From positions 384,001 through 448,000 of the forward strand of contig CAWIAD010000002.1 of NCBI GenBank assembly GCA_963833985.1: DNA of 64,000 nucleotides. The letters run 5' to 3'. The notes under the pieces are model-generated. The model worked only from the letters and a program-made list of their open reading frames with translations. It was not told the DNA's origin and made no database searches. This stretch comes from an uncultured Planctomycetaceae bacterium. Its GTDB lineage: Bacteria > Planctomycetota > Planctomycetia > Isosphaerales > Isosphaeraceae. Shown one piece after another: positions 2,956 through 16,882 of the stretch; the stretch's first letter is position 1, and every line of letters starts with the position of its first letter. A program made the translations under genes and the position numbers.

Positions 2956-4299
2956 TCAGTCGTGCCGGGCCGGCAGCGGCGCGGACGCGTTCGCGGGATG
3001 GTAGCTGTTGCAGAAGTCGATCCGTTCACCAATGCTGGGGTGGGAACCACGGAAGACCTTGTAGATCAGCCCCGGGCGGGGGTTACTCAGGTTTTCGTGC
3101 TGGAGCTTGACGAAAGCCGTCGCGGCCGAGTGATTGGCGTGCGTCAGGTCGAGTGCGAAGCGGTCGGCCGCATGCTCCTGGAAGCGGCTGTAGGCCATGG
3201 CCACGGGGGACAGGAACAGGCTGGACACCTCGATCAAGAGCAGAATCAGCGGCACCGCCGCAATGTCCGACAGGCTCTGGAACCGCAGCCGGTGGGCGTA
3301 CCGGGCGATCAGCCAGCGGCCCAGGCGATCGACCACGAACAACCCGGTGAGCGTCAGGAGCGACGAGAGCAGGATCGACCACACCACGTGGCCCATCACG
3401 TAATGCCCCATCTCGTGGCCCATGACCGCGAGGACTTCTTTCTCGTCCAGCCGGTCCAGCAGCGTATCCCAGAGGACGATCCGCTTGGTCCCCAGCACAC
3501 CCGTCACGTAAGCGTTGACCATCCTGGTATCGGCGCTCTTGTCCACTTCGAAGACCCGGCTCCCTTCGATGCCGGCCCTCTGGGCCAGTTCCAGTATCGA
3601 CTGCTCGAGTGCCTGGTTCTTCATCGGCCCGAACTTGTTGAACAGCGGATCGATCCAGATCGGCATCACCAGCACGGTCGAGAACAGGAAGGGTACCGAC
3701 AAGAGCGCTGAGTACAGCCACCAACGCCGCGGCGATCGAGAGAGCAGCAGCAACGGGACCCAGGCGAAGGCGAAGCCCGCCAGCATCTCCACGCCCAGGT
3801 GGAGAACCGATTTCGTGAACCACCGGCCCGGGCTCTGGTTCGAGAGACCGTAAGCGTGCTGGCGCACGAACCCCGCGTAATAGTTCAGGGGCAGGTCAAT
3901 CAGGAAGACGAGCCCCAGGTAGAGCACGACGTACAACCCCACCGAGAGGAACCAGTAGCGGCCCAGCCTGTGCGCCAGGTCACGGAGAGTGGCGGAGAAG
4001 CCAGAGAAGGCCATCGCGGCAGGCACCAGCATGCTCCAGCAGACACCCAGCGCCCACAGCCACATACCGCTTCTGTAATATCGCAGGGCCAGGGGAGAAG
4101 GAGTCGGAACCTCGACGGGACGCTGTTCCATGTCCGTTCTCGCGACGAGGGTTCCAGGATCCGGCACACCGCTCTTGCTCCCTGTGTGCTGTTGAGGTTC
4201 CTCGCTCGGCTGGGCCGCCTGCATGGGAACAAGGGAACCGGCGAGCACGATGAGCAGTACCACTACCAGAGCGACTGGCGCAAGCGACTTCCGATTCAT
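2956..4299 (-). CDS. M48 family (Ste24/CAAX-protease-like) membrane zinc metalloprotease
   Basis: HEMGH zinc motif, NAYVTG, RIVLWDTLL, SRFQEHAADRFA and HPSIGERI motifs, plus several TM helices. Confidence 0.93.
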   Translation of the reverse strand: MNRKSLAPVALVVVLLIVLAGSLVPMQAAQPSEEPQQHTGSKSGVPDPGTLVARTDMEQRPVEVPTPSPLALRYYRSGMWLWALGVCWSMLVPAAMAFSGFSATLRDLAHRLGRYWFLSVGLYVVLYLGLVFLIDLPLNYYAGFVRQHAYGLSNQSPGRWFTKSVLHLGVEMLAGFAFAWVPLLLLSRSPRRWWLYSALLSVPFLFSTVLVMPIWIDPLFNKFGPMKNQALEQSILELAQRAGIEGSRVFEVDKSADTRMVNAYVTGVLGTKRIVLWDTLLDRLDEKEVLAVMGHEMGHYVMGHVVWSILLSSLLTLTGLFVVDRLGRWLIARYAHRLRFQSLSDIAAVPLILLLIEVSSLFLSPVAMAYSRFQEHAADRFALDLTHANHSAATAFVKLQHENLSNPRPGLIYKVFRGSHPSIGERIDFCNSYHPANASAPLPARHD

Positions 4300-4357
4300 C
4301 AAGCCCTGGCCCTTTCTGACGTGGTCCTCGAGCCTTCAGGCGGGCGCGGGCCCTTGA

Positions 4358-5776
4358 TCACTCGATGATCTGGTGGGGCTCTGGCTCGCTGATCGGAGCG
4401 TTCGGCTCCGGCTCACCAAAAACGCGGAGCGAGAGATACCCCAGTGCGGCCGCAAGCGCCGCGCTCAGGGCGCCGAGTACATAGGTGGCGTAACGAAACA
4501 GATTGAGCCTGCGCAGGAACTCCGCGCCCTTCTGGCCTTCGGCGGTCTCGGCGATCTCGGTTTTCTCGGCCAGTTCTTGTTTCAGCTGCACCTGCGACTT
4601 CTGAAGGTCGTCCACCTGAAGTCGCAGCTCGTTGGTCTTCCGGGCGTCGGCCTCATTGCGCTCAGCCTGTGTCCTGACCGTGGCCAGCTCATCGGTCAGC
4701 TTGTCGTTCTTGGACACCAGCTCCTTGGTGCGCAGACCCAGAGTTTCGTTGATCGATTGCAGGGCCGATAGCTGCTTGCGGGCCTCGTCGCGGGCCTTCG
4801 CCGCACGCTCGTATCGCTCGGCGAACTGGGCGGGGTTATCGCTGCCGGCCTTCTCCAGCAAAGTATCGACGGTGAGCCGCTGAGTTCCGGCAACCTGGTC
4901 CACCGACCGCGCCAGGACCTTGAGCGACTCGCCCTGATCTTCGAGCCGGTTGTGAAGCTGGTACAGCCCGAGCACCACACCGACCCCCAGCACGCCCAGG
5001 AACGACCCCAGCATGCTGAAGAGCACAGCGGTCTGGATCTTGTCGCCTGATGGGCCGACGTACTGCGGCGTTGATTGTCGATTGAGCATCTTCAGAAGCT
5101 CCGCCTCGAGACGTGGAGAAAGAATCCCCGTTCCCGATCCCGAGCCCTGTGGGCTGGGAATGTTTTCCAGGTCATTGGCCAGCTTGGCCAGGGCCATTCG
5201 CTCGCTTCGCTCGGCAGTCAGGTAGTAACCTTCGACCTGCGCCACGTTCCCGCCCCGCCACTGGAAGAAGCCGCGGGTCTGCTGGATGGGATCGACGACG
5301 TAGGCCACTTGCAGCTTCTGGGCGAAGAAATGTTGATGAATGAAGACATCGTGGTGCGACAGGAAGATCCCGAAGCTGGGATGCGTGTGGTACCAGCCGA
5401 CGATGTCGAGGTCGGGAAACAGCCGATCGCGCTCGCGAGTGATCTCTTCCCAGGAGTCGTGGGTGTAGGTGAAGCTGGCCTGAGTGTTGGCGTAGTGCTT
5501 GGCCTCGAGGCTTTGTGAGATCCACACAAAGGGCGTGCCCGCCGTCTCGTCCAAGCATTCCTTGCCCAGCAAGATGCCGCCGAGCTCGACCGAGGTATCC
5601 GCCAGCGCGTGCCGCTCGATGGCGTCGGCCGCGTGGTAGTCCAGGAAGATGGGCAGGTCGTCGGCGGCGGGCACCTGATAGGACAGGCAGGCGAAGCGGC
5701 GGTCGCGGTCGGGTCGGAGTAGCCGCACCGGCTCGCGGTACCGGATCTCGTCGAAGACCATCTCATCGCCGCTCAC
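4358..5776 (-). CDS. JAB/MPN+ (JAMM) metallo-isopeptidase fused to TM - coiled coil - TM
   Basis: VELGGILLG...VGWYHTHPSFGIFLSHHD (E...HxH...S..D JAMM motif, Rpn11-like). Hydrophobic helices at ~4961-5033 and ~4425-4495 flank a heptad-rich segment. The GTG start at 5776 overlaps the E1 stop (GTGA). Confidence 0.9.
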   Translation of the reverse strand: MSGDEMVFDEIRYREPVRLLRPDRDRRFACLSYQVPAADDLPIFLDYHAADAIERHALADTSVELGGILLGKECLDETAGTPFVWISQSLEAKHYANTQASFTYTHDSWEEITRERDRLFPDLDIVGWYHTHPSFGIFLSHHDVFIHQHFFAQKLQVAYVVDPIQQTRGFFQWRGGNVAQVEGYYLTAERSERMALAKLANDLENIPSPQGSGSGTGILSPRLEAELLKMLNRQSTPQYVGPSGDKIQTAVLFSMLGSFLGVLGVGVVLGLYQLHNRLEDQGESLKVLARSVDQVAGTQRLTVDTLLEKAGSDNPAQFAERYERAAKARDEARKQLSALQSINETLGLRTKELVSKNDKLTDELATVRTQAERNEADARKTNELRLQVDDLQKSQVQLKQELAEKTEIAETAEGQKGAEFLRRLNLFRYATYVLGALSAALAAALGYLSLRVFGEPEPNAPISEPEPHQIIE

Positions 5777-7065
5777 CGGCCCATCCCCCAGCCGCGCGGG
5801 CGGCCGTCCCGGTCGCCAGCCAGAAGGAAGAAACGGCTTGCTCCGGCACCGTCCACGCGGAGGATATCGTACGCGGGCACGCCAAGGTCCGCCAGCGTGC
5901 GGCCGGCCAGCGGGGAAGTCTCCTGCACGGTGCTGATCAGCTCGGGACGGCCCGTTTCGCGGCAGTTCGGGCATGCGGCCTCGGCTTGCCGAACGCTGGT
6001 GCGCGGCCGCATGATCTCCTGCCGCCCGTCGCATCGCGGGCAATGCACGGAGGTCACCAGCTCACGATCGAGAACCAGGGCGAGTGGTCCTTCCAGCTCG
6101 TCCCGCGCCGCGGCCAGCAGTGCGGCGCAGGTGCTCTGGTGGCCGAGCGGCAGCTCGACCGGGCGGGGATAGGTCTCGTGGCTCAGGCAATCCTCGCGAA
6201 ACGGAAGCTGCGTCGTATAAAACTGATTGCCCACGCCATTGAACACCATCGCCGAACCGGCCGCCACCGGCATCCCATGCAGCAGCTTGAGCGCTTCTTG
6301 AACTTGCAGCGCCGCCATCATCGACGCGATCGTCGGCGCCGTGGGGACCTTGCCCGCCAGGATCTCGTCTCGCTTCAGCAGCGGACAGCTATAACGCAGG
6401 TTCAGAAGCTGGTAATCGCGCTGGGTCATGGCGCACTCGTAGCAGGCCGAATCCGGCGGCACGAAGACCTTCACCACGCCCTGGATCTCCTGGATGCCCG
6501 CGTCGATCCAGGGCGTGCCGGTCTTCCAGCACTGACGGTTGACCCAGAGCCGGGCCTCGCGGTTGTCCAGGCAGCCGATCACCAGGTCGACATCAGCGAA
6601 CAGACCCAGGCCCAGATCGGTGATGACGTCCCCGTGCATCGGCACGATGGTGATGTCCGGATTGAGCTCGCAGGCCCGCCGCGCCGCGGCCTTGGCCTTC
6701 GACTGGCCGGCGTCGTCGGCTCGGAAGAGCACCGAGCGCGACAGGTTCGAGGGCTCGATGACGTCCAGATCGATCAGGTAGGTGGTCCCCACGCCCACCA
6801 GTGCCAGGTTCTTCAAAACCTCGTTGCCCAGCGCGCCGGCTCCGACGACCAGCACCCTGGCGGCAGCCAGCCGGTCTTGCCGCCACCAGGAAATGAGACG
6901 GAGGCGGCCGTAGCGATCTTCATCGTCAATTCGCAGCAGCGCCGGATCGCCGTTCTCACCTTCCGGCGGAACGGCAGACGCGGCCGCCGGGCTCGCGCCG
7001 GGCTCCCGCGCATCGCCGGGTCCTGCCTGTGCCTGACCGCGAATCGATAGGGATGGTTGATCCAT
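5773..7065 (-). CDS. E1-like ubiquitin-activating enzyme (ThiF/MoeB/E1 superfamily)
   Basis: DRYGRL...VLVVGAGALGNEVLKNLAL...DLDVIEPSNLSRSVLF...CLDNREAR; ACYEC followed by RYSCP (candidate catalytic Cys at 6385-6387); C-terminal CPRC/CPNC zinc pairs. Start could be 7065 or 7101. Confidence 0.92.
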   Translation of the reverse strand: MDQPSLSIRGQAQAGPGDAREPGASPAAASAVPPEGENGDPALLRIDDEDRYGRLRLISWWRQDRLAAARVLVVGAGALGNEVLKNLALVGVGTTYLIDLDVIEPSNLSRSVLFRADDAGQSKAKAAARRACELNPDITIVPMHGDVITDLGLGLFADVDLVIGCLDNREARLWVNRQCWKTGTPWIDAGIQEIQGVVKVFVPPDSACYECAMTQRDYQLLNLRYSCPLLKRDEILAGKVPTAPTIASMMAALQVQEALKLLHGMPVAAGSAMVFNGVGNQFYTTQLPFREDCLSHETYPRPVELPLGHQSTCAALLAAARDELEGPLALVLDRELVTSVHCPRCDGRQEIMRPRTSVRQAEAACPNCRETGRPELISTVQETSPLAGRTLADLGVPAYDILRVDGAGASRFFLLAGDRDGRPRGWGMGR

Positions 7066-7100
7066 CGGACTTGGTTCCCGCCCTGACCCGCGGATCGCCA

Positions 7101-8093
7101 TTATTCCAGGAACATAATCTCGTCGTTGCTCTCGAGCGGCCGGGACGGGCGAGGCGGGATCTCATCATCCGTATCGAGGACGATCACATCGTCTGTGATC
7201 GTCTCGACGGGCCGGGCGTTGCGTGGACCCGCGCTGTCCGTGAGACATCGGCCTTCACCGTTCGGGGCGGGAATGGGCAAGCTCGCGGACGCGGTCTGGC
7301 ACGGCGACACGGACACCGCGCTGACGGTTGAGCCTGCCGGGTGGATCGCCGTGACAAGACCGGGGGGCCCGGGAGCCAGCACAGTCGTCGTCGTGACCAG
7401 TTCCGGCTGGCCGGTGATCCCGTCGCCGATCGCCCTGGCGTACCGCTCCATGAACTGGCGCACGCGTCCCACCGGAGAGAGGCTCTCCAGGCCTGAGCCG
7501 GAACCGTTTCGGGCGGCGTGGCCGGCACGCGAGGGCTGCCTTGTCGCGCCGGCCGAGGACCCCCTCGTGCTGCCGTTGACGTCGCTCTCCGCGGCTTCAA
7601 TCCGCCCCTGGGCCGCACGCAGGTCGCGCAATGGCCGGGCGTCGGTGGGGAAGAGGATTGCCGTCTGGTTGGCGACCCAGAGCGCGGCTTCCCGGTTGTA
7701 CGGGCTGCGGATGTCGTAGTTGAAATAGCGGGTCATGTCCCAGAGCATCACGCAGAGCTCGTCTAGCTGGACGCTGGGCACCCAGTGCGTGCCGTAACCG
7801 CCCAGACAGACCATGCCGATCTCCGAGATATTGGGATGGTACACCGGAGTCAGCCAGCGCAGCTCTGGAATGGTCCGGGGATAGGATGCACCAAGCTTGA
7901 TCTCCACGCGGTGGTAAAGGACGAGCTTGACCTTGCCGCGATCACGGCATAACCCCTTACCCTTGTAGGTGACAAGATAGTACGTGGGCGGATTGCCCGT
8001 AGCCTGAAAATCAAAGACCGAACTTTCCGACCGCAGCCTTTCAAGGGCCGTCAGGTCGTTTCTCAGGCGCCGCATGCGTGGGGAGTCGTGCAT
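7101..8093 (-). CDS. E2 ubiquitin-conjugating (UBC) enzyme with long disordered C-terminal tail
   Basis: RRLRNDL helix 1, YPRTIP, TPVYHPNISEIGMVCL (HPN motif plus catalytic Cys at 7806-7808), W..S..L, SPYNREAA. Alternative start at 8144. Confidence 0.92.
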   Translation of the reverse strand: MHDSPRMRRLRNDLTALERLRSESSVFDFQATGNPPTYYLVTYKGKGLCRDRGKVKLVLYHRVEIKLGASYPRTIPELRWLTPVYHPNISEIGMVCLGGYGTHWVPSVQLDELCVMLWDMTRYFNYDIRSPYNREAALWVANQTAILFPTDARPLRDLRAAQGRIEAAESDVNGSTRGSSAGATRQPSRAGHAARNGSGSGLESLSPVGRVRQFMERYARAIGDGITGQPELVTTTTVLAPGPPGLVTAIHPAGSTVSAVSVSPCQTASASLPIPAPNGEGRCLTDSAGPRNARPVETITDDVIVLDTDDEIPPRPSRPLESNDEIMFLE

Positions 8094-8261
8094 CGTCTCG
8101 CGGCCACCCGCGGCAAGCGCGGAGCCGACCTCTTGGAGGTACATCGTCTGGCGAAAAGGGAGCTCTGGGGAGGCTGCGGCCGAGGCAGTGAAAACTGTTC
8201 GGGCGAGGCCACAACACCGGGCACCGGGGAATGTCCCGTGCGCCGGTGAACCCCGCCCCGC

Positions 8262-8555
8262 TCAGCCCGCGACCACCTCGGGATAGACGATCAGGTGATC
8301 GCCATTCTGAATTCCAGCCTCAACGAGTGTCCAGTTTTCGAGCAGCCGCCGTCCCCCTTCTTTATGATCCAGCGCGTAGCTCATGGGCTGACCGTCCGGG
8401 CTGGTCGCCGGCAAGTTCATCTTGGTGATGATGTTGGGGATGATCCGGCTAACGGGAACGGTGAAGGCGATAACCGCCTTGACCGACTTGGACCCGGTCT
8501 GATCCAGAAAGGTGACCTGGATCCCGTTGGGATCGGCATTTCCGCCGTATGACAT
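8262..8555 (-). CDS. Ubiquitin-like beta-grasp protein (YukD/EsaB-like) ending in Gly
   Basis: 97 aa with a TLVEAGIQNGDHLIV Ubl signature and C-terminus PEVVAG-stop. Strong SD (GGAGGAGG) upstream. First gene of the E2-E1-JAB run. Confidence 0.88.
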   Translation of the reverse strand: MSYGGNADPNGIQVTFLDQTGSKSVKAVIAFTVPVSRIIPNIITKMNLPATSPDGQPMSYALDHKEGGRRLLENWTLVEAGIQNGDHLIVYPEVVAG

Positions 8556-8825: not shown

Positions 8826-10013
8826 TCAGCGGCCGGAGGCGTCCACTTCGATGCTGTTTCCTGCGACCCGGACGACCCTGGCCCAGGTGATCTGGTCCGC
8901 GAAGCGCTGCACATCGACCGAGCCCTCGAAGCCTATCCGATACATGGACAACGGACCGCCAGAGCCGGAGTTCGAGAGCTGATACCCGCTGGAAACGCGC
9001 CTGATCAGCTCCGTCAGCCTGTCCGCGAACTGCCTGGCGGCCTCCCGGTTGCTCAGACCGGAGACCATCACAACAATCGAGTACGCCATGACCGGCTGCT
9101 GGACGCCCGGCGGCGGTGCGGGCGATTGCGCCGGCGGGGGTTCGAAGCCCGAGGGCGGACCAGGGGCTGGTCGCAGAAAACCCGGCGGCACTTCGGCAGG
9201 ATCGCCGGCACCCGAGAACCCAGCCGGGAGGGCCCCGTCCTGCCGATCGATGTTGTGCCTCATCGCATTGAGTCCTGGCAGCGCGATGGCCATGACGATC
9301 ACCACACCGAAGGACGCGATGTAGCTCAGGAAGGGGCCCTTCATGGCATCCCATTCCCTGATCGTGTACCCAAGGATGTAGAAGGGGCAAAACCAGCAGA
9401 GCAGCCCGGTCAAGAGACCGTCGCTGAAGGGCACGATGATGACCCCGGCTGCCCCGTAGAGAAAGAGCACCAGGAACGACAGCACCCCACCGCCAAAGAA
9501 GAGGTACGCCCCGGCAGCCGGGCTGATGAGGGTGAGCAGAAAACCCAGGGCGAGCACGGCGAGTACACCGAAGTAGACAAACCCCGGCAGACCATCGAAT
9601 AAGGAGCCCCGGTCGCGACTTGCCCAGGAGCTTCCCTTGCTCTTTTGCCCCGGTGAGCTTGCCGGGGCCCGGCGGGGGAGCACCGGCGCATCGTATTCAT
9701 TGTCGACTGACGGAAGCGCGGGGGCGGCAACCGGGCCGACCGGCACGTCGTTCAGGCCGTACGGGTCGTCCACGGCTGAATCTGGGATGGATGGCGAGGG
9801 CAAGGAAGGACGCCGTTCCGCGGCCCCACGAGTCTTCCCCGACGAACTCGCTGAGGCGGCCACCGGCGCCGCCCCCCGCGGCGGACGGACGGTCGATGGC
9901 GTCGGGATGACGAAAACGTGACCGCACCCGCTGCACCGGGCCTTCTTGCCCGAAAGAATGCTGTCTTTCTGAAACTTCTTTCCGCAACTGGAGCACGAAA
10001 ACACGATCTGCAT
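8826..10013 (-). CDS. Zn-ribbon / Pro-rich linker / multi-TM membrane protein
   Basis: N-terminal CSSC...CSGC zinc ribbon, Pro/Ser-rich linker, 4-5 hydrophobic helices, and a small C-terminal alpha/beta domain. Confidence 0.75.
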   Translation of the reverse strand: MQIVFSCSSCGKKFQKDSILSGKKARCSGCGHVFVIPTPSTVRPPRGAAPVAASASSSGKTRGAAERRPSLPSPSIPDSAVDDPYGLNDVPVGPVAAPALPSVDNEYDAPVLPRRAPASSPGQKSKGSSWASRDRGSLFDGLPGFVYFGVLAVLALGFLLTLISPAAGAYLFFGGGVLSFLVLFLYGAAGVIIVPFSDGLLTGLLCWFCPFYILGYTIREWDAMKGPFLSYIASFGVVIVMAIALPGLNAMRHNIDRQDGALPAGFSGAGDPAEVPPGFLRPAPGPPSGFEPPPAQSPAPPPGVQQPVMAYSIVVMVSGLSNREAARQFADRLTELIRRVSSGYQLSNSGSGGPLSMYRIGFEGSVDVQRFADQITWARVVRVAGNSIEVDASGR

Positions 10014-10561: not shown

Positions 10562-11074
10562 TCACCGCGACTTCAATCGTTTCCTGATCTGCTCTGGCCG
10601 GGCTCGCTTCGCGCGTGCTTCGGTATGCGGCCGTTGCCAGGACTGCTTGCGTTCCGGCTTTGCCTTGACCATGTCGTAATGCCGTTTCAGCCGCTCCACG
10701 TAGGCAGCGTCCGGCAAGATCACCGACTGGAAGAGGTCGAGGAAGTCTTCCGCATACTCCGACTGCTCCCAGATCGGGTCGAGGAACAGCTCCAGGCTCG
10801 TTCCGGCAACCGCAAGCGGACGGGATCCTTGCTCCAGCTTGAGACCCGGATCCCAGGAATAGCTGATGGACGCCCAGATCTTTCCCGGAGTTGATTCCTC
10901 GACCACCCTGATCAGCACACGGCGGCAGTGGCAACCCACTTCATCACAGTACATCTCCAGGAACGCGTACCGGCCGGGAGGCGGCGCTTCGCCATCCCCC
11001 GGTCCCTCAAGGATCACCACACGCGTCTCTCGCGGTCCGATGTCCGGGAACCGTTTCGAGAAATAAGCCATCAT
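10562..11074 (-). CDS. Conserved hypothetical protein with Cys cluster (YCDEVGCHCRRV)
   Basis: Globular-looking ORF. The motif resembles the N-terminal region of proteins often fused to SEC-C, but no SEC-C motif is present here. Confidence 0.6.
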   Translation of the reverse strand: MMAYFSKRFPDIGPRETRVVILEGPGDGEAPPPGRYAFLEMYCDEVGCHCRRVLIRVVEESTPGKIWASISYSWDPGLKLEQGSRPLAVAGTSLELFLDPIWEQSEYAEDFLDLFQSVILPDAAYVERLKRHYDMVKAKPERKQSWQRPHTEARAKRARPEQIRKRLKSR

Positions 11075-11231
11075 GGCTGGGTCCTCCAGTTCTTACCCGA
11101 TGAATCTTCAAGCAATGATGTGTGAGTTCCGGTCCATTGCGGACGCACGGCACCTTCGGATATACCATAATCGAAGCGACCAGTTCGACTGGAAATCGGC
11201 CCAGCACGGCCGTCGGCGGAGGCTCCGGCTG

Positions 11232-12323
11232 ATGAGATTGCTGTTCGACGGCCACCTGGACCTGGCCTGGAACGCCCTGTCCTGGAACCGGGACATCACG
11301 CAGGATCTCGACTGGCTGAACCGCGGTGAGATCGGAATGACCGACCATCCGTCGCGGGGGCGGGCGACGACGACGCTGCCCGAGCTGCGCAGGGCGGGCG
11401 TCGCGGTCTGCCAGGCGACGCTGCTGGCACGGGCCAAGCCGGAAGTGCGCCGGCCGGAGGGCCATGCTCGCAACAGCCTGGACTTCGCCTGCCAGGAGAT
11501 TGCCTCGGCCACGGCCCGTGGGCAACTGGCCTACTACGAGCTGCTGGAACGCAGGGGGCTCGTGCGCATGATCCGCTCCCGCTCCGAACTGGACCAGCAC
11601 TGGGAGCGCTGGCGGGCCGGCGACGGTGACGGCGACGAGCCCATCGGCTACATCCTGGCGATGGAGGGTGCCGATCCCATCGTCGAGCCGGGCCAGGCCG
11701 TCGAGTGGTGGAACCTGGGCCTGCGCTCGGTGAACCTGGCACATTACGGCAAGAGCCGCTACGCGGTCGGCACGGGCGACGACGGTCCGCTCTCTCCGGA
11801 GGGCGTGCAACTGCTCAAGGAGTTCGAGCAACTGGGGATGATCCTCGATGCGACTCACCTTTCCGACACCAGCTTCCACCAGGCGCTCGCCATCTTCCAT
11901 GGACCCGTGCTGGCCAGCCACAATAACTGCCGGGCCCTGGTTCCCGGTGACCGGCAGTTCAGCGACGCACAGTTACGCTTGCTCATCGAGCGCGACGCCG
12001 TCATCGGTGCGGCGCTCGACGCCTGGATGCTCTTTCCTGGCTGGGTGCGCGGAGAAACCTCGCGCGATGCGGTGAACCTCGAGGCGGTCGCGGACCAGGT
12101 CGACCACGTCTGCCAGCTTGCCGGCAATCACCGGCATGCCGCGATCGGCAGCGATCTCGACGGCGGATTCGGCACCGAGCAAAGCCCGCTGGGCATGGAC
12201 CGAATTTCCGATCTTCAGCGGCTGGATGAGATCCTCGCGCGGCGCGGCTATGCCGCGGAGGCGATCGATGCGATCTTTCACGGCAACTGGATTCGCTTTT
12301 TCCGCAAGAATTTGCCCTTCTGA
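11232..12323 (+). CDS. Dipeptidase, M19 (renal/membrane dipeptidase) family
   Basis: FDGHLD, LAMEGAD, ILDATHLSD, ASHNN, DRQFSD and IGSDLDG motifs. Confidence 0.92.
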   Translation: MRLLFDGHLDLAWNALSWNRDITQDLDWLNRGEIGMTDHPSRGRATTTLPELRRAGVAVCQATLLARAKPEVRRPEGHARNSLDFACQEIASATARGQLAYYELLERRGLVRMIRSRSELDQHWERWRAGDGDGDEPIGYILAMEGADPIVEPGQAVEWWNLGLRSVNLAHYGKSRYAVGTGDDGPLSPEGVQLLKEFEQLGMILDATHLSDTSFHQALAIFHGPVLASHNNCRALVPGDRQFSDAQLRLLIERDAVIGAALDAWMLFPGWVRGETSRDAVNLEAVADQVDHVCQLAGNHRHAAIGSDLDGGFGTEQSPLGMDRISDLQRLDEILARRGYAAEAIDAIFHGNWIRFFRKNLPF

Positions 12324-12427
12324 GCGATGGTCCCGTGAGACGGGCTCGGAATTCCGGGTCCTTCCTGGCGTTTCATTGCCAGGCTTGCGGCGCGGTGGAG
12401 AGCGCACCGGAGGTCTTCGTGGGCGAG

Positions 12428-15400
12428 ATGGATGCAATCCCGGCCGACTGGTGTGAGCAGGCGCAGGAGCTTCTGGCGGCCGCCGAACGAGGCCAGGGCA
12501 AGCCGCTGACCGATCTACTAGACCAGCTCGCAGAGGGCATCCGCCTGCGGCGTGCTCTCGATCAGCGAGCGCCCGAAGCCCCCACAGAGACCGCGCCGAG
12601 CCATCCAGAGGCGGCTCTTCGAGCTGCGACGGGCCATCGCCGCTGAGATTTCCAGTCGCGAGGTCGAGCCGGACGAGCGTTCGGAGCTCTCTGGTCGAGT
12701 GAAGGCGTGGTTGGCCGAGGCGCGGATCACGCTCCGGAACCTGGTGAGCGACCATGCGCTGGACGCGCTGGCTCGAGCGCTTGCGATCGACGGTTTGCGG
12801 ACCGACCTGGAATGGCTCGGTATGCTGGTAACCTGGCTTGACCGGGAAACGCCTCCGGGCCGGATGGCGGCGCTGGATGTTGAGCTGGAACGGATTCGCA
12901 ACGGCCTGGCCGTCTGGCCTGAGCCGCAACGGAAGCCCGACGACCGCCGCGAGGCCCTGCTGCGGCGTTGCGATCGTTTGCGGGGTGTGCTGCTGGAGCG
13001 GCGGATCCGTTCCGAACTGGAGAGACCGGCTGCCGGCGAAACCCCCGAGCAACTGCTCGGCCAGCGTCTCGAGTTTTCCCGGCTGCAAGCGCGGGTGCTG
13101 GCTCTTGAGGAGCCAGACGATGAAGCACGCCCGAAATGGCTGGGCGGCGACCCCGAGCAATGGGCCGACGCGCTCTCGGTGCGGCGGATCGAGCTGTCCG
13201 TCCGGGCCGCGAGCCAGCTCGAGGCGATGAGCCTGGCCGAAGCCCGTCGCCACTGCGAGCGAGCCGCCCAGCGCGCACGCGACGAGGTCAGTGAGATGAT
13301 CGCGTTCGTGCAGGACATGCCCCTGCGCCGGGCCGTGAGCCGGCTGGAGCTGGCGCGGCAGGATCTCCAGCAACTCGCGGTCATCCTTCGCCGCCGTGCG
13401 GGTTCACCGCGCTCCGAGAGCGGCCAGGACGACGAGGACCCGAACGTCCCCGGCGGGGCGCGGCGTGCCGCTTCGCCGCACGATTCAGGCGAAGCTGAGA
13501 TTGCTCGCCAGCGGATTCGCCACCAGGCCCTCGAGCTCAAGAAGGCGGACCGCAGGGTGCGCGGCGAATGGCAAGAGCGGCTACTGGCATTCCGGCTGGC
13601 AAGCGTGCTGGGGACGCGCGTCGCGAGGTTGATCGAGACGGCCGTGCTCTGGCTCATTCTCTTGCTGGTCGGCCTGATCACCGCGGAATGGCTGCTCGAT
13701 CGCGCCGGATTGCTTCTGGACAGCCATCGCCGCTGGCTGGCCTGGGCGGATCTTGCCGTCTGCTCGGCCCTCCTCCTGGAATTTGCCCTCCGGCTGGCTC
13801 TTGCCCCGCGCAAGGGGGTCTACCTGCTGCGCCATTTCGTCCTCGATGTCCTCGCCTCACTTCCGTTCGGCTTCCTTGCCTACCAGTCCGCCGTGGCCGA
13901 GCTGGGGACGGCACCCGGAACGGACGCAACGTTTCTCTGGTTCCTCAAGGCCCTGCAAGTCGGCCGGCTCGTGCAACTGGTACGGTTTCTCCGCCTCACG
14001 CTTCCGGTCCTCAGGCTCGCGCGGCTGGTCCTTTTTTTCCTCAGGCTCGGCGACCGTCTCGTGAGCAAGTACGCGGGGCTATTGAACCGCAACATCATCC
14101 TCTTCGAGCCCTATCACGCACAGCGGCCGGAATCGAGCGATCGGCACCGCCTGGCGGCCCTGCGCGGCGAGCAGGAGCATGCGGCCTGGGCCCTGGCGGC
14201 ACGACTGGACGCCGGCCAGCGCGCGCAGCTTGCCGCCCGAGCCCTGGCCGATCTGGACATCCGCATCGAGACCCAGCCGTTCGAGGTCCCTGGCAGCGAG
14301 GGTGCGGAGCACGAGCCGGGTGAGGGCGTGGGCCGCGACGTTCCCGTGGAGGCGCTCGTCGATCGGCTGATCCAGCTCAGCCCGGAGGGACTCGTCGAGC
14401 AGATGGGACCGGCGTTCGTCACCTCGGCCGATCGTTACCTGCGGCTGCTGGACGTGCCGCTTGTGCGGCGCATGCGGGTGATCCGCAACCTTGTGGCATA
14501 TCGCCAGAAGAGCCCGGCGGAAGCCGTCGCCCTGGCCGCTAACTACGTCGGCCATCTGCTCCAGCGCATCCTTGACGTCGTCTACTTTCTGGCCGACCTG
14601 GAGGGAACGCTGTCGCCGCCGGTCTTCCTTGACCGCCTGGGAGCGACGATCGAGAGCGCGACCCGCACGCCAGCCAGGCGTTTACTCTGGATGGGGTCAG
14701 CCTTCCTGTCACTCTTCGTCGTGGTCAATAGCGTGGGTTTCCTGAAGCCCTTTCGGGGCTTTGTCGACCGGCTTCAAGACTTGCTCGGCTGGCCGGTGAT
14801 CGTCCTGGGTGGTTTCTGCCTGATCTTCTGGCTGCTCGGCTCATGGTTCCGGAAGATCGCCAACCAGTCGGCCGACCATTGTGAGCGGGTGGTCGAGGCG
14901 CAGTTCGCCGCCCAGACCAAGAACCTGAAGTCCCGCCGTCGCGATCAGGACGCGCGGTTCCTGGCCGAACGCGTCATCGATCCGGAACTGTTGCTGAGAT
15001 CGTCCGATAACTCGTTACCGGACCTCTATCGTGGTCATAGCGAGGCCGGGCCCGAATCCACGGGCCGTCTGCTCTTCGAGAACCGCGAGCTGATCTTTCT
15101 GAGGAACATTCGCCTGCTCTATCAGGATTACCTCGACGGCTCGCCCTTTCACCGCAGCGACACCAGGGCCTCGGTGCAACTGCTGGGCAACCTGGCGCTG
15201 GCCAACTTGCGGCGCAGCCACCTGGGCCACCTGCTGCGCGAGGGACGCGCCCTGGACCGCCTTGATCTCAGCCGCGCCGGGCGACTCTTCGGCGGGCCCT
15301 ACCTCTGGTTCAACTACATCACCCGCATGATTGTCCAGGAGACGGCGATCCTGCTCCTGGATTACAACCAGCACGCGATCCCCCTGGACCGCCTGGCCTG

Positions 15401-16882
15401 CTCGCCGCCGGAGACCCGGCACAGCTTCGCCTGCTGGCTGGCGCGGCGCTTGCGGATCGATCCGGGCGAGGTTGTCCTCCCCGAACTGGCCGTCCCCGGG
15501 GCTGAAGACGCGGCTTCATCGGCCGAATGCCATGCGCGTTCCCGGCGCGCCGAGGCGGACGACTTCCTCGAAACCGTGGAGTTCACCGCGATGGACTTCC
15601 TGGCCGACGACCCCCAGCGCGACGCGGGGATTGCGGCCCGCTTTGGCCTCCAGCTCGCCGAGCTCGTACGCAGGGACCGGCAGCAAAATGTCCGTCGCGC
15701 ATTCCGCAGCTTCCCGCTCCATGAGCTCCCCCTGGCGCAGCGAACGATCAACCTCTACGCCTTCTATGAGGCATACCTGTCGCACGGCAGGATCGTCTTC
15801 TTCCCGTTTCTTGTCGCGGGCGCCGCGGGACAGGCCGTCCTGACCGCCTACCGCGCGGTGCGGCGCGGCGTGCGCGAGATCCTTCATCCCAGCGTCGACC
15901 AGGATGACGACGTGCCCGCGGATACGTACTGGGCGGCGCTGCGCAAGATCCACCGCATGCGCAAGCCCGTGTTCATGGGCACGCTCTGGCTCCGCGCCGA
16001 TTCGACCCCGAATATCTCGGCCTGCCTCTGCCCACCGCGCCGCCCGGAATCGCCGCGCATTCACTGATGGAGAGCGACCTCGATTTCATCGGCGCCTCAC
16101 GGCAGGACCGCATCATCGCCGAGCAGATCCGCACCGGCCACCAGCGCCGGCTACGCTGGATCGGTCGCTGGCTCCAGCAGTTCGGCTGGACCTTCGACAC
16201 CCTGCCCGGATACCTCGCCCGCGAGATCCCCTACCTTGCCAACCGGGGCGGAGAAGGCCTTCGCGCCCTGGTGACGGCCTGCGTGCTCGACCACGACGAC
16301 ATCACCAGCCTGGCCTTCTCCATCGAGGGCCTGAAGCGCGTGCTGGCCCACGGTGCCGACGCCGCGCTGGACGGGCAGGCGCTGCCGCCCGGCTTGCCCG
16401 ACCCGGTGGTGAACCTGCGCAAGCTCTGGCATCCTGTGCCGGCGCGGCGCCGCCCGCTGAGCGACCTCTTCCGGCTGGCTTGCTTTCCCGCTTACGGTCC
16501 GCAGCAGCAGGCTCGCATTCTTGCCTATCTGCACCGTCACCGCCGTGCGGTGCGCGGCTGGATTCACGTCATCCTGGGCCAGGCCGGCGACGATCCCTGG
16601 ACCACCGTGCAGAGCCGCATGCGCGAGGTGCTCTTGCGAACGGACCTCTGGAGCGACCAGGTGCTCGTCTTGAGAGCGGTGCAGACGCTGACCATGCTCG
16701 ATGTCCAGCACAATTGCGACCTGGTCTGGAGCCTGGGCGGGTATACGCTGCCGGCCTCCGATGCGGCCGCGGCCAGCGGATCTTTCACCAGGGAGCCGGC
16801 CGAGGAGAGGCAGGTCCCGGAGCGCGATTTCCCGAGAACGGTTGCCGCCGGGAACACGCCGGCAGCAGCCGGAGTGCAGTGA
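12428..16882 (+). CDS. ~1,480-aa membrane protein with voltage-sensor-like (Ion_trans S1-S4) domain; apparent frameshifts ~12595 and ~15997
   Basis: ORFs 12335-12646, 12552-16067 and 16067-16882 join by small indels (TETA/RAIQRRL; LRA/RFDPEYLG). S1-S4 at ~13630-14055 carries ADLAVCSALLLEFALRL, DVLASLP and GRLVQLVRFLRLTLPVLRLARL. Confidence 0.7.

Follow-up and report, generated by a model that had tools for sequence, protein, structure and literature searches.

A predicted ubiquitin-like tagging system with a membrane RING protein, retained across the planctomycete order Isosphaerales

Introduction

Operons encoding a ubiquitin-like protein (Ubl) together with E1, E2, RING, and JAB proteins were predicted in prokaryotes in 2011 by Burroughs, Iyer, and Aravind, as a "tri-ligase" class (Pfam PF14446; PMC4197634, PMC3417536, PMC7159879), and the passages of these papers on which we draw describe such operons as sporadic and mobile, and as often missing in close relatives (PMC4197634, PMC3417536). 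A minimal E1-E2-RING cascade is also encoded by the Ub/E1/E2/srfp/Rpn11 operon of Caldiarchaeum subterraneum (PMC5654768), and the bench-studied bacterial E1-E2 systems, so far as the literature cited below describes them, lack an E3 and are tied to defense. Here we describe a locus in an uncultured Planctomycetaceae bacterium (Isosphaeraceae; assembly GCA_963833985.1, referred to as G000), located in a stretch of 64,000 nucleotides (contig CAWIAD010000002.1, positions 384,001 to 448,000; the window), in which four genes encode a Ubl, an E2, an E1, and a JAB protein, the enzymes being canonical and eukaryote-like, and whose predicted RING E3 gene resides on another contig (C1) of the same genome. 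Coordinates without a prefix are window positions.

We consider it fairly probable that these genes specify a complete, chromosomally fixed Ubl-E1-E2-RING-JAB cycle, operating on the cytoplasmic side of the inner membrane, where it would regulate membrane proteins as a standing function or control their quality. All five components, their intact active sites, and their co-inheritance are evident from the sequences, the models, and the comparative genomics. What the locus adds to the described systems is order-wide fixation, a tag conserved at the level of RpoB, and a displaced E3. The inheritance is that of a core gene, in an order with cultured members, and five small single-copy genes make two propositions testable: RING-dependent conjugation in Bacteria, and a role of such systems in cell maintenance that preceded the proteasome or was separate from it.

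The operon

The first-pass annotation of this DNA had noted four consecutive co-oriented genes with an E1/JAB overlap and had proposed profile, structure, and synteny searches, along with a comparison with known operon types; the gene arrangement is as noted, on the minus strand, and the searches bear it out. The Ubl gene (8262..8555) is preceded by a GGAGG ribosome-binding site and encodes 97 amino acids ending in PEVVAG; the E2 gene (7101..8093) encodes 330 amino acids, with HPNI at residues 86-89 and Cys96; the E1 gene (5773..7101) encodes 442 amino acids, with a GAGALG nucleotide loop and Cys239; and the JAB gene (4358..5776) encodes 472 amino acids from a GTG start, with the JAMM residues E64, H130, H132, S140, and D143. 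The respective Pfam families, YukD (2.9e-14), UQ_con (3.3e-11), ThiF (3.7e-57), and JAB (1.7e-9), are all matched above cut-off. The E2 stop and the E1 start share TAATG, the E1 stop and the JAB start share GTGA, and each of the five components, RING included, is present in a single copy in G000. Of the 50 loci fetched via JAB, 41 show the same order, Ubl-E2-E1-JAB, so the operon is not a chance arrangement; among the remaining nine, contig ends truncate five, three have JAB alone, and one is rearranged. A scan for promoters and terminators returned 3 and 6 sites, versus 1.0 and 3.2 expected by chance, none of them useful. Across 56 loci, none of the 25 commonest neighbor clusters contains defense, mobile, sulfur-pathway (thiamine, molybdopterin, cysteine), or type VII genes.

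The tag and its maturation

The Ubl model is a beta-grasp fold (predicted local distance difference test, pLDDT, 89.8), with Z scores of 10-11 to EccD-Ubl, SUMO, ISG15, and ubiquitin. Residue conservation was counted, here and below, over full-length open frames from the 56 loci plus the window, some of the loci being close kin and truncated or frameshifted frames being dropped; on this count Gly97 is invariant (46/46), as are 50 of the 97 alignment columns, and lysines 23, 26, 45, and 65 are conserved. The protein is the sole YukD match in G000. Given this Pfam family and a best fold match to EccD5-Ubl, one could imagine a structural adaptor of the type VII secretion kind, never conjugated and surrounded by vestigial enzymes, as Bacillus subtilis YukD is described to be structural and not conjugated in the cited portions of two papers (PMC12637312, PMC1779556). 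This we find barely credible, as the terminal glycine is invariant and followed in most orthologs by a cleavable tail, the active sites of E1, E2, and JAB are invariant, and no type VII gene is found among the common neighbors. An identity with YukD/EsaB proper was likewise rejected: these are linked to FtsK ATPase and WXG100 genes in the passages cited (PMC1779556), and no such neighbors occur in the common clusters.

The tag encoded in the window ends in a free Ala-Gly, and the earlier view that it needs no maturation, JAB acting as a deconjugase, holds for this protein and not as a rule. Among 45 orthologous Ubls, the glycine is the last residue in only seven. The other 38 continue beyond it, by two residues in 24 cases and by one to eight residues in another 11, with three long tails (20, 21, and 108 residues) that are possibly sequence errors. 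Because such tails prevail, the free end in the window being the exception, JAB probably acts as a maturase as well as a deconjugase.

The E2, E1, and JAB enzymes

The best sequence matches in the PDB are eukaryotic for each enzyme: Ubc13/UBE2N for the E2, UBA7/UBA1 for the E1, and Rpn11 for JAB. The HPN motif and Cys96 of the E2 are invariant in 43/43 sequences, and its C-terminal tail is of low complexity and of variable length, from about 40 to 170 residues. The nucleotide loop, the zinc ligands, and Cys239 of the E1 are invariant in 38/38, and the position of Cys239 in the crossover loop points to it as the catalytic thioester cysteine. E1 genes were surveyed in the fetched loci and in the genus g232 (see below). 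The E1 model (pLDDT 92.2), folded from an alignment of 48 rows, one of which (L083, wrong strand) is noise, aligns with UBA1, UBA6, SAE2, and UBA3 to their C-terminal ends, through residues 377-380; with SAE2 (9dqb) the alignment extends over 310 residues (root-mean-square deviation 4.0, Z 29.6). MoeB and ThiF align with a slightly higher score (Z 31-32), but these alignments end at residue 257 of the model. We read the C-terminal domain as a eukaryote-like, E2-binding ubiquitin-fold domain with a Zn-ribbon insert, an assignment taken from the structural alignment, since a profile of this domain searched against PDB sequences gave no match under E 0.07. The JAMM residues E/H/H/S/D of JAB are invariant in 43/43, and hydropathy places hydrophobic anchors, to which the first-pass annotation made no reference, at residues 251-269 and 432-450, around a long helical segment; two membrane segments are seen in 37 of 43 orthologs and at least one in all 43.

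The initial suggestion of a thioester tagging relay, as opposed to sulfur transfer of the ThiS/MoaD type, agrees with the invariant E1 and E2 cysteines and with the solved relatives named above. The fold of the E1 core, closest to MoeB/ThiF, and the membrane anchoring of both RING and JAB do leave room for the tag being a sulfur carrier, or for the acceptor being a membrane lipid or a small molecule, as for Atg8, and not a protein lysine. However, a canonical HPN-Cys E2 combined with a RING is of the lysine-conjugation type, G000 has separate MoeB-like genes besides the operon E1, and no sulfur-pathway gene is found among the common neighbors, making this alternative quite improbable in our estimate. 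A ThiS/MoaD carrier as such was rejected, the E2 being linked to the Ubl in 41/41 Ubl-bearing loci and sulfur-pathway genes being missing from the 25 commonest neighbor clusters.

The RING gene

No RING gene is found in the flanks of the operon within the window, and to this extent the original remark that no E3 is visible was correct. In the genome as a whole it does not stand: a single Prok-RING_1 gene is present on the other contig (G000:C1:4884-5726), encoding 281 amino acids with an N-terminal membrane segment, a DUF3137-like domain, and a C4HC3 RING whose layout agrees with the part of the published description that we cite (PMC11354881). The eight zinc ligands and a tryptophan (Trp257) are invariant in 18/18 orthologs, and 17 of the 18 are membrane-anchored. 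A search of the ESM Atlas with the middle domain returned only unnamed clusters at 0.90, along with the DUF3137 lead. A full-length ortholog is encoded in 68/74 genomes of the order and in 66/67 of those with the Ubl, the lone exception (G285) being an 89%-complete draft with matches to the RING domain only. In 36 of the 66 genomes having both, covering 24 of 33 genera, the RING gene is positioned 145-1309 bp upstream of the Ubl gene, on the same strand; nine genomes have it elsewhere on the same contig and 21 on a different one. Judged by this placement in relatives, the gene at G000:C1:4884-5726 is a displaced member of the operon. RING-less operons are also found in five more distant planctomycete genomes, and in all five RING relatives are encoded elsewhere. 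By the positive-inside rule, the catalytic domains of both RING and JAB would face the cytoplasm.

One could argue that E1 and E2 conjugate the tag directly and that the RING is an accessory neighbor, given that the Bil E1 and E2 conjugate without an E3 in the part of the report cited (10.1101/2023.09.26.559546), that the RING gene is far from the Ubl or on another contig in 30/66 genomes, including all eight of the window's genus that have both, and that the RING is the fastest-evolving member of the system (54.4% mean identity to G000). Against this, it is retained in all but one of the Ubl-bearing genomes, with its zinc ligands and tryptophan invariant, and we give E3-independent tagging little weight.

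In the window, the place taken by the RING gene in relatives, directly upstream of the Ubl, is occupied by a gene for a Zn-ribbon and membrane protein (8826-10013, minus strand) that is outside the common neighbor clusters. A different layout, with one E1, one E2, and many E3s, is seen in two other genomes. In G180, 13 of the 16 regions fetched (L209-L224; 17 matches) encode strict C4HC3 RINGs, as do all four fetched from G114 (L225-L228; 6 matches); these proteins are scattered, of varied architectures, and often membrane-bound, with one Ubl match per genome.

Distribution and inheritance

The named relatives carrying the operon are Isosphaeraceae, including records of Singulisphaera, Aquisphaera, and Tautonia. 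Planctomycete genomes that are kin of this family are reportedly also among those named by Burroughs in 2011. Ubl, E2, and JAB are each present in 67 of 74 Isosphaerales genomes, and the Ubl in 29 of 251 genomes sampled evenly across the phylum. The mean identity to G000 is 86.4% for the Ubl, versus 85.6% for RpoB, 69.6% for the E2, and 69.3% for JAB, and the identity of each component tracks that of RpoB (rho of 0.77 for Ubl, 0.85 for E2, 0.70 for JAB, and 0.74 for RING, over 21 genomes, kin among them not being independent). In the E1 tree, the Isosphaerales sequences group in a single clade (17 rows, support 96/97), separate from those of a paralogous, RING-rich operon type. The pattern is that of a vertically kept core function, near-universal in the order. 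Genus g232 stands out: its five genomes (93-98% complete) have no match to Ubl, E2, JAB, RING, or PF14446, and the E1 matches in them are MoeB-like (34-37%). This joint absence supports the linkage of the RING to the operon, modestly so, because only one event, on a deep-lying branch, is behind it.

The paralogous operon has the order Ubl-E1-JAB-TM/FHA-RING/TM-RING/trypsin-E2 (TM, transmembrane), its E2 with a Zn-ribbon tail (L087, L088, L094, L101, L102, L106, and L107), and it carries two or three membrane RINGs. In 16 of the 74 Isosphaerales genomes its Ubl turns up as a second match; of its TM-FHA partner, only unlinked FHA homologs are found in G000.

The strongest competitor to a housekeeping role is a domesticated anti-phage system, in which the tag would, as in Bil, be attached to proteins of the phage, the pathway being idle in uninfected cells. 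Precedents are Bil, CBASS Cap2, and Bub, in the cited parts of the respective reports (10.1101/2023.09.26.559546, PMC11601603, PMC11601596). Beyond the order the distribution is indeed patchy, a second, RING-rich operon is present in some of the genomes, and a viral contig of 77.7 kb (IMGVR_UViG_3300033233_000027, L126:4965-5264) encodes a 71%-identical Ubl with Ala-Gly plus three residues, as a decoy might be. However, near-universal single-copy retention and slow vertical evolution do not fit, the common neighbor clusters hold no defense genes, a PADLOC search gave no match for Ubl or E2, and one viral locus is all that was found, viruses being known to copy housekeeping tags as well. We regard the anti-phage explanation as unlikely.

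Relationship to described systems

By its features the system belongs to the prokaryotic E1/E2/RING/JAB class: it has a beta-grasp Ubl with a C-terminal glycine, an E1 cysteine, an HPN-Cys E2, an intact JAMM site, and a C4HC3 RING, the last being unlinked in G000 and adjacent to the Ubl in 36/66 relatives. With the tri-ligase operons, as portrayed in the passages cited, it shares the same five components, planctomycetes being among the named carriers; it is unlike them in its order-wide fixation, vertical inheritance, RpoB-level conservation of the tag, and a single, often unlinked RING. The fullest tri-ligase form in these genomes is the paralogous operon, with Ubl-E1-JAB-FHA/TM, two to three RINGs, and E2. 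The Caldiarchaeum operon, in the portion of the report cited (PMC5654768), is similar in its minimal E1-E2-RING cascade, JAMM peptidase, and canonical E2, and differs from the planctomycete system, which has a YukD-like tag ending in Ala-Gly, a C4HC3 membrane RING, a membrane JAB, and no 20S proteasome found.

Type I and II Bil systems, again as far as the cited text extends (10.1101/2023.09.26.559546), likewise possess separate Ubl, E2, JAB, and E1 genes, and a tag with a single glycine and a short pro-tail. BilD, however, is described there as having an inactive adenylation domain and no ubiquitin-fold domain, and BilB as having a CEHH-type site, with no E3, while the system described here has an HPN-Cys E2, an E1 with a single adenylation domain and a predicted ubiquitin-fold domain, and a RING. 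The BilD match to the window E1 is weak and limited to residues 80-203. A Bil identity was rejected, with the E1 C-terminal domain aligning to eukaryotic ubiquitin-fold domains and HPN..Cys found in every E2 (43/43). Bub systems, according to the parts of the papers cited, feature a DUF6527/BubE gene and Tyr/Ser oxyester sites in place of cysteine (PMC11601603, PMC11601596); PF20137 (DUF6527) was not found in G000, a 96%-complete genome in which the control was detected, and the E1 and E2 cysteines are invariant, so a Bub identity was rejected as well. The comparison with Bil and Bub proposed at the outset thus places the system outside both definitions. We found no experimental study of it in the literature searched, subscription papers and supplements, whose operon tables may list it, being outside that search.

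SUMO-interacting-motif-like strands and a candidate reader

In 36 of 43 sequences, acidic residues in the E2 tail are followed by a terminal [IV]xF[ILF][EDS], an ending found in two of the 12,556 likely coding frames of G000, and similar acidic-hydrophobic strands are seen by eye at the start of JAB, before the E1 core, and before the RING. These enzymes show the sequence features of a SUMO-interacting motif (SIM): a short hydrophobic strand, acidic flanks, and a position in flexible extensions. A comparison of charges by eye, over two or three lineages, shows that acidic strands accompany tags whose beta2/alpha1 face is basic (Isosphaerales, L081-L084), and basic strands those whose face is acidic (L099, L100, L116, L117, and L120). 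When the Ubl and the 36 C-terminal residues of the E2 were modeled as a complex, the best score was 0.27, the mark being 0.32 and controls not folded. The resemblance to the SUMO pathway, in the portion of the paper cited (PMC12687455), lies in SIMs located in flexible extensions of the E1 and the proteases, and in the use of one tag, one E1, and one E2; the difference is that the motif here is a sequence pattern and that the tag is not a SUMO homolog by sequence.

A protein with an FHA domain and a disordered tail with two SIM-like strands is encoded away from the operon (L127:5328-5903, minus strand, corresponding to G000:C1:2271327-2271902), with orthologs in 72 of the 74 Isosphaerales genomes. 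Among the 50 orthologs whose tails were read, 37 of the 45 from other genera carry the motif, acidic [IV]I[DE]L[DE], as against none of the five from g232, which end in a different conserved motif; deep-branching Ubl-bearing genomes are also without it. As a lead only, this protein may be a reader of the tag.

Proposed function

The following steps are modeled on eukaryotic and Bil chemistry. JAB would trim the pro-Ubl to Ala-Gly, the G000 tag being already mature; E1 would adenylate Gly97 and then take the tag on Cys239; the ubiquitin-fold domain of E1 would recruit the E2, and the tag would pass to Cys96. The membrane RING would then activate the E2 thioester and pick targets in or near the membrane, and the membrane-anchored JAB would take the tag off. 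More speculatively, the flexible ends of E2, JAB, E1, and RING may dock through their short acidic-hydrophobic strands, in a SIM-like manner, on the basic beta2/alpha1 face of the tag, which would account for the strong conservation of the tag. The outcome may be a SUMO-like interaction signal or a hand-over to membrane or AAA+ proteases, and not to a proteasome.

Regulation or quality control of membrane proteins is favored because RING and JAB are both membrane-anchored, neither a 20S proteasome nor a Pup ligase was found, and defense, mobile, sulfur, and type VII genes are missing from the common neighbors. The housekeeping membrane role hinted at in the first-pass annotation is thus the predicted one, in line with near-universal, vertical inheritance. 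Several observations pull in the other direction. The characterized bacterial E1-E2 systems are all linked to defense, so far as the cited portions of the reports go (10.1101/2023.09.26.559546, PMC11601603, PMC11601596), and a virus carries a copy of this tag. The shared lack of the components in g232 counts as one event, on a branch that is both deep and long, and the genes may never have been gained there, as opposed to lost. The RING scored 28.7 and 25.2 bits in two scans, against a PF14446 cut-off of 29.1; the SIM reading, drawn from a sequence pattern, is speculative; the M48 protease gene next to the operon is not co-inherited with it; and as to the fate of tagged proteins, G000 yielded no 20S proteasome and no Pup ligase, only an HslV-like match to PF00227.

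A broader proposal, which we offer tentatively and hold to be doubtful, is that Isosphaerales and some other planctomycetes run a housekeeping code similar to ubiquitin and SUMO, with a tag frozen at the RpoB level, one E1 bearing a ubiquitin-fold domain, one canonical E2, membrane RINGs no longer tied to the operon (a single one here and at least 13, scattered, in G180), and SIM-like docking of the enzymes and of unlinked readers such as the FHA protein. If true, the eukaryotic hierarchy would have been reached inside Bacteria and outside defense.

Neighboring genes

The habitual downstream neighbor of the operon is a gene for an M48 Ste24/CAAX-type membrane protease (2956..4302, minus strand; Pfam M48 and M48_N), which directly follows JAB in 41 of the 59 genomes with both. 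It was rejected as an obligate member of the system, being kept in all five g232 genomes and not found in five of five genomes of a genus that bears the system. Further along the minus strand (871-2884), a pair of neighboring, strongly hydrophobic frames (276 and 486 amino acids) without a Pfam match is possibly one gene split by a frameshift, and on the plus strand (11073-16067) an M19 dipeptidase and a protein of 1171 amino acids with a weak ion-transport-like segment are encoded. Of the 56 loci, 24 have an MMPL-family transporter cluster in the vicinity of the operon (for example, L034:10728-13562). Finally, in two loci (L118:3097-12416 and L119:6262-12467), in which an E2 was not found, a divergent YukD-like Ubl, an E1, and a JAB are encoded beside a proteasomal AAA ATPase, along with two genes of the Pup-ligase family in L118, and these loci possibly represent a junction of Ubl and Pup-type systems.

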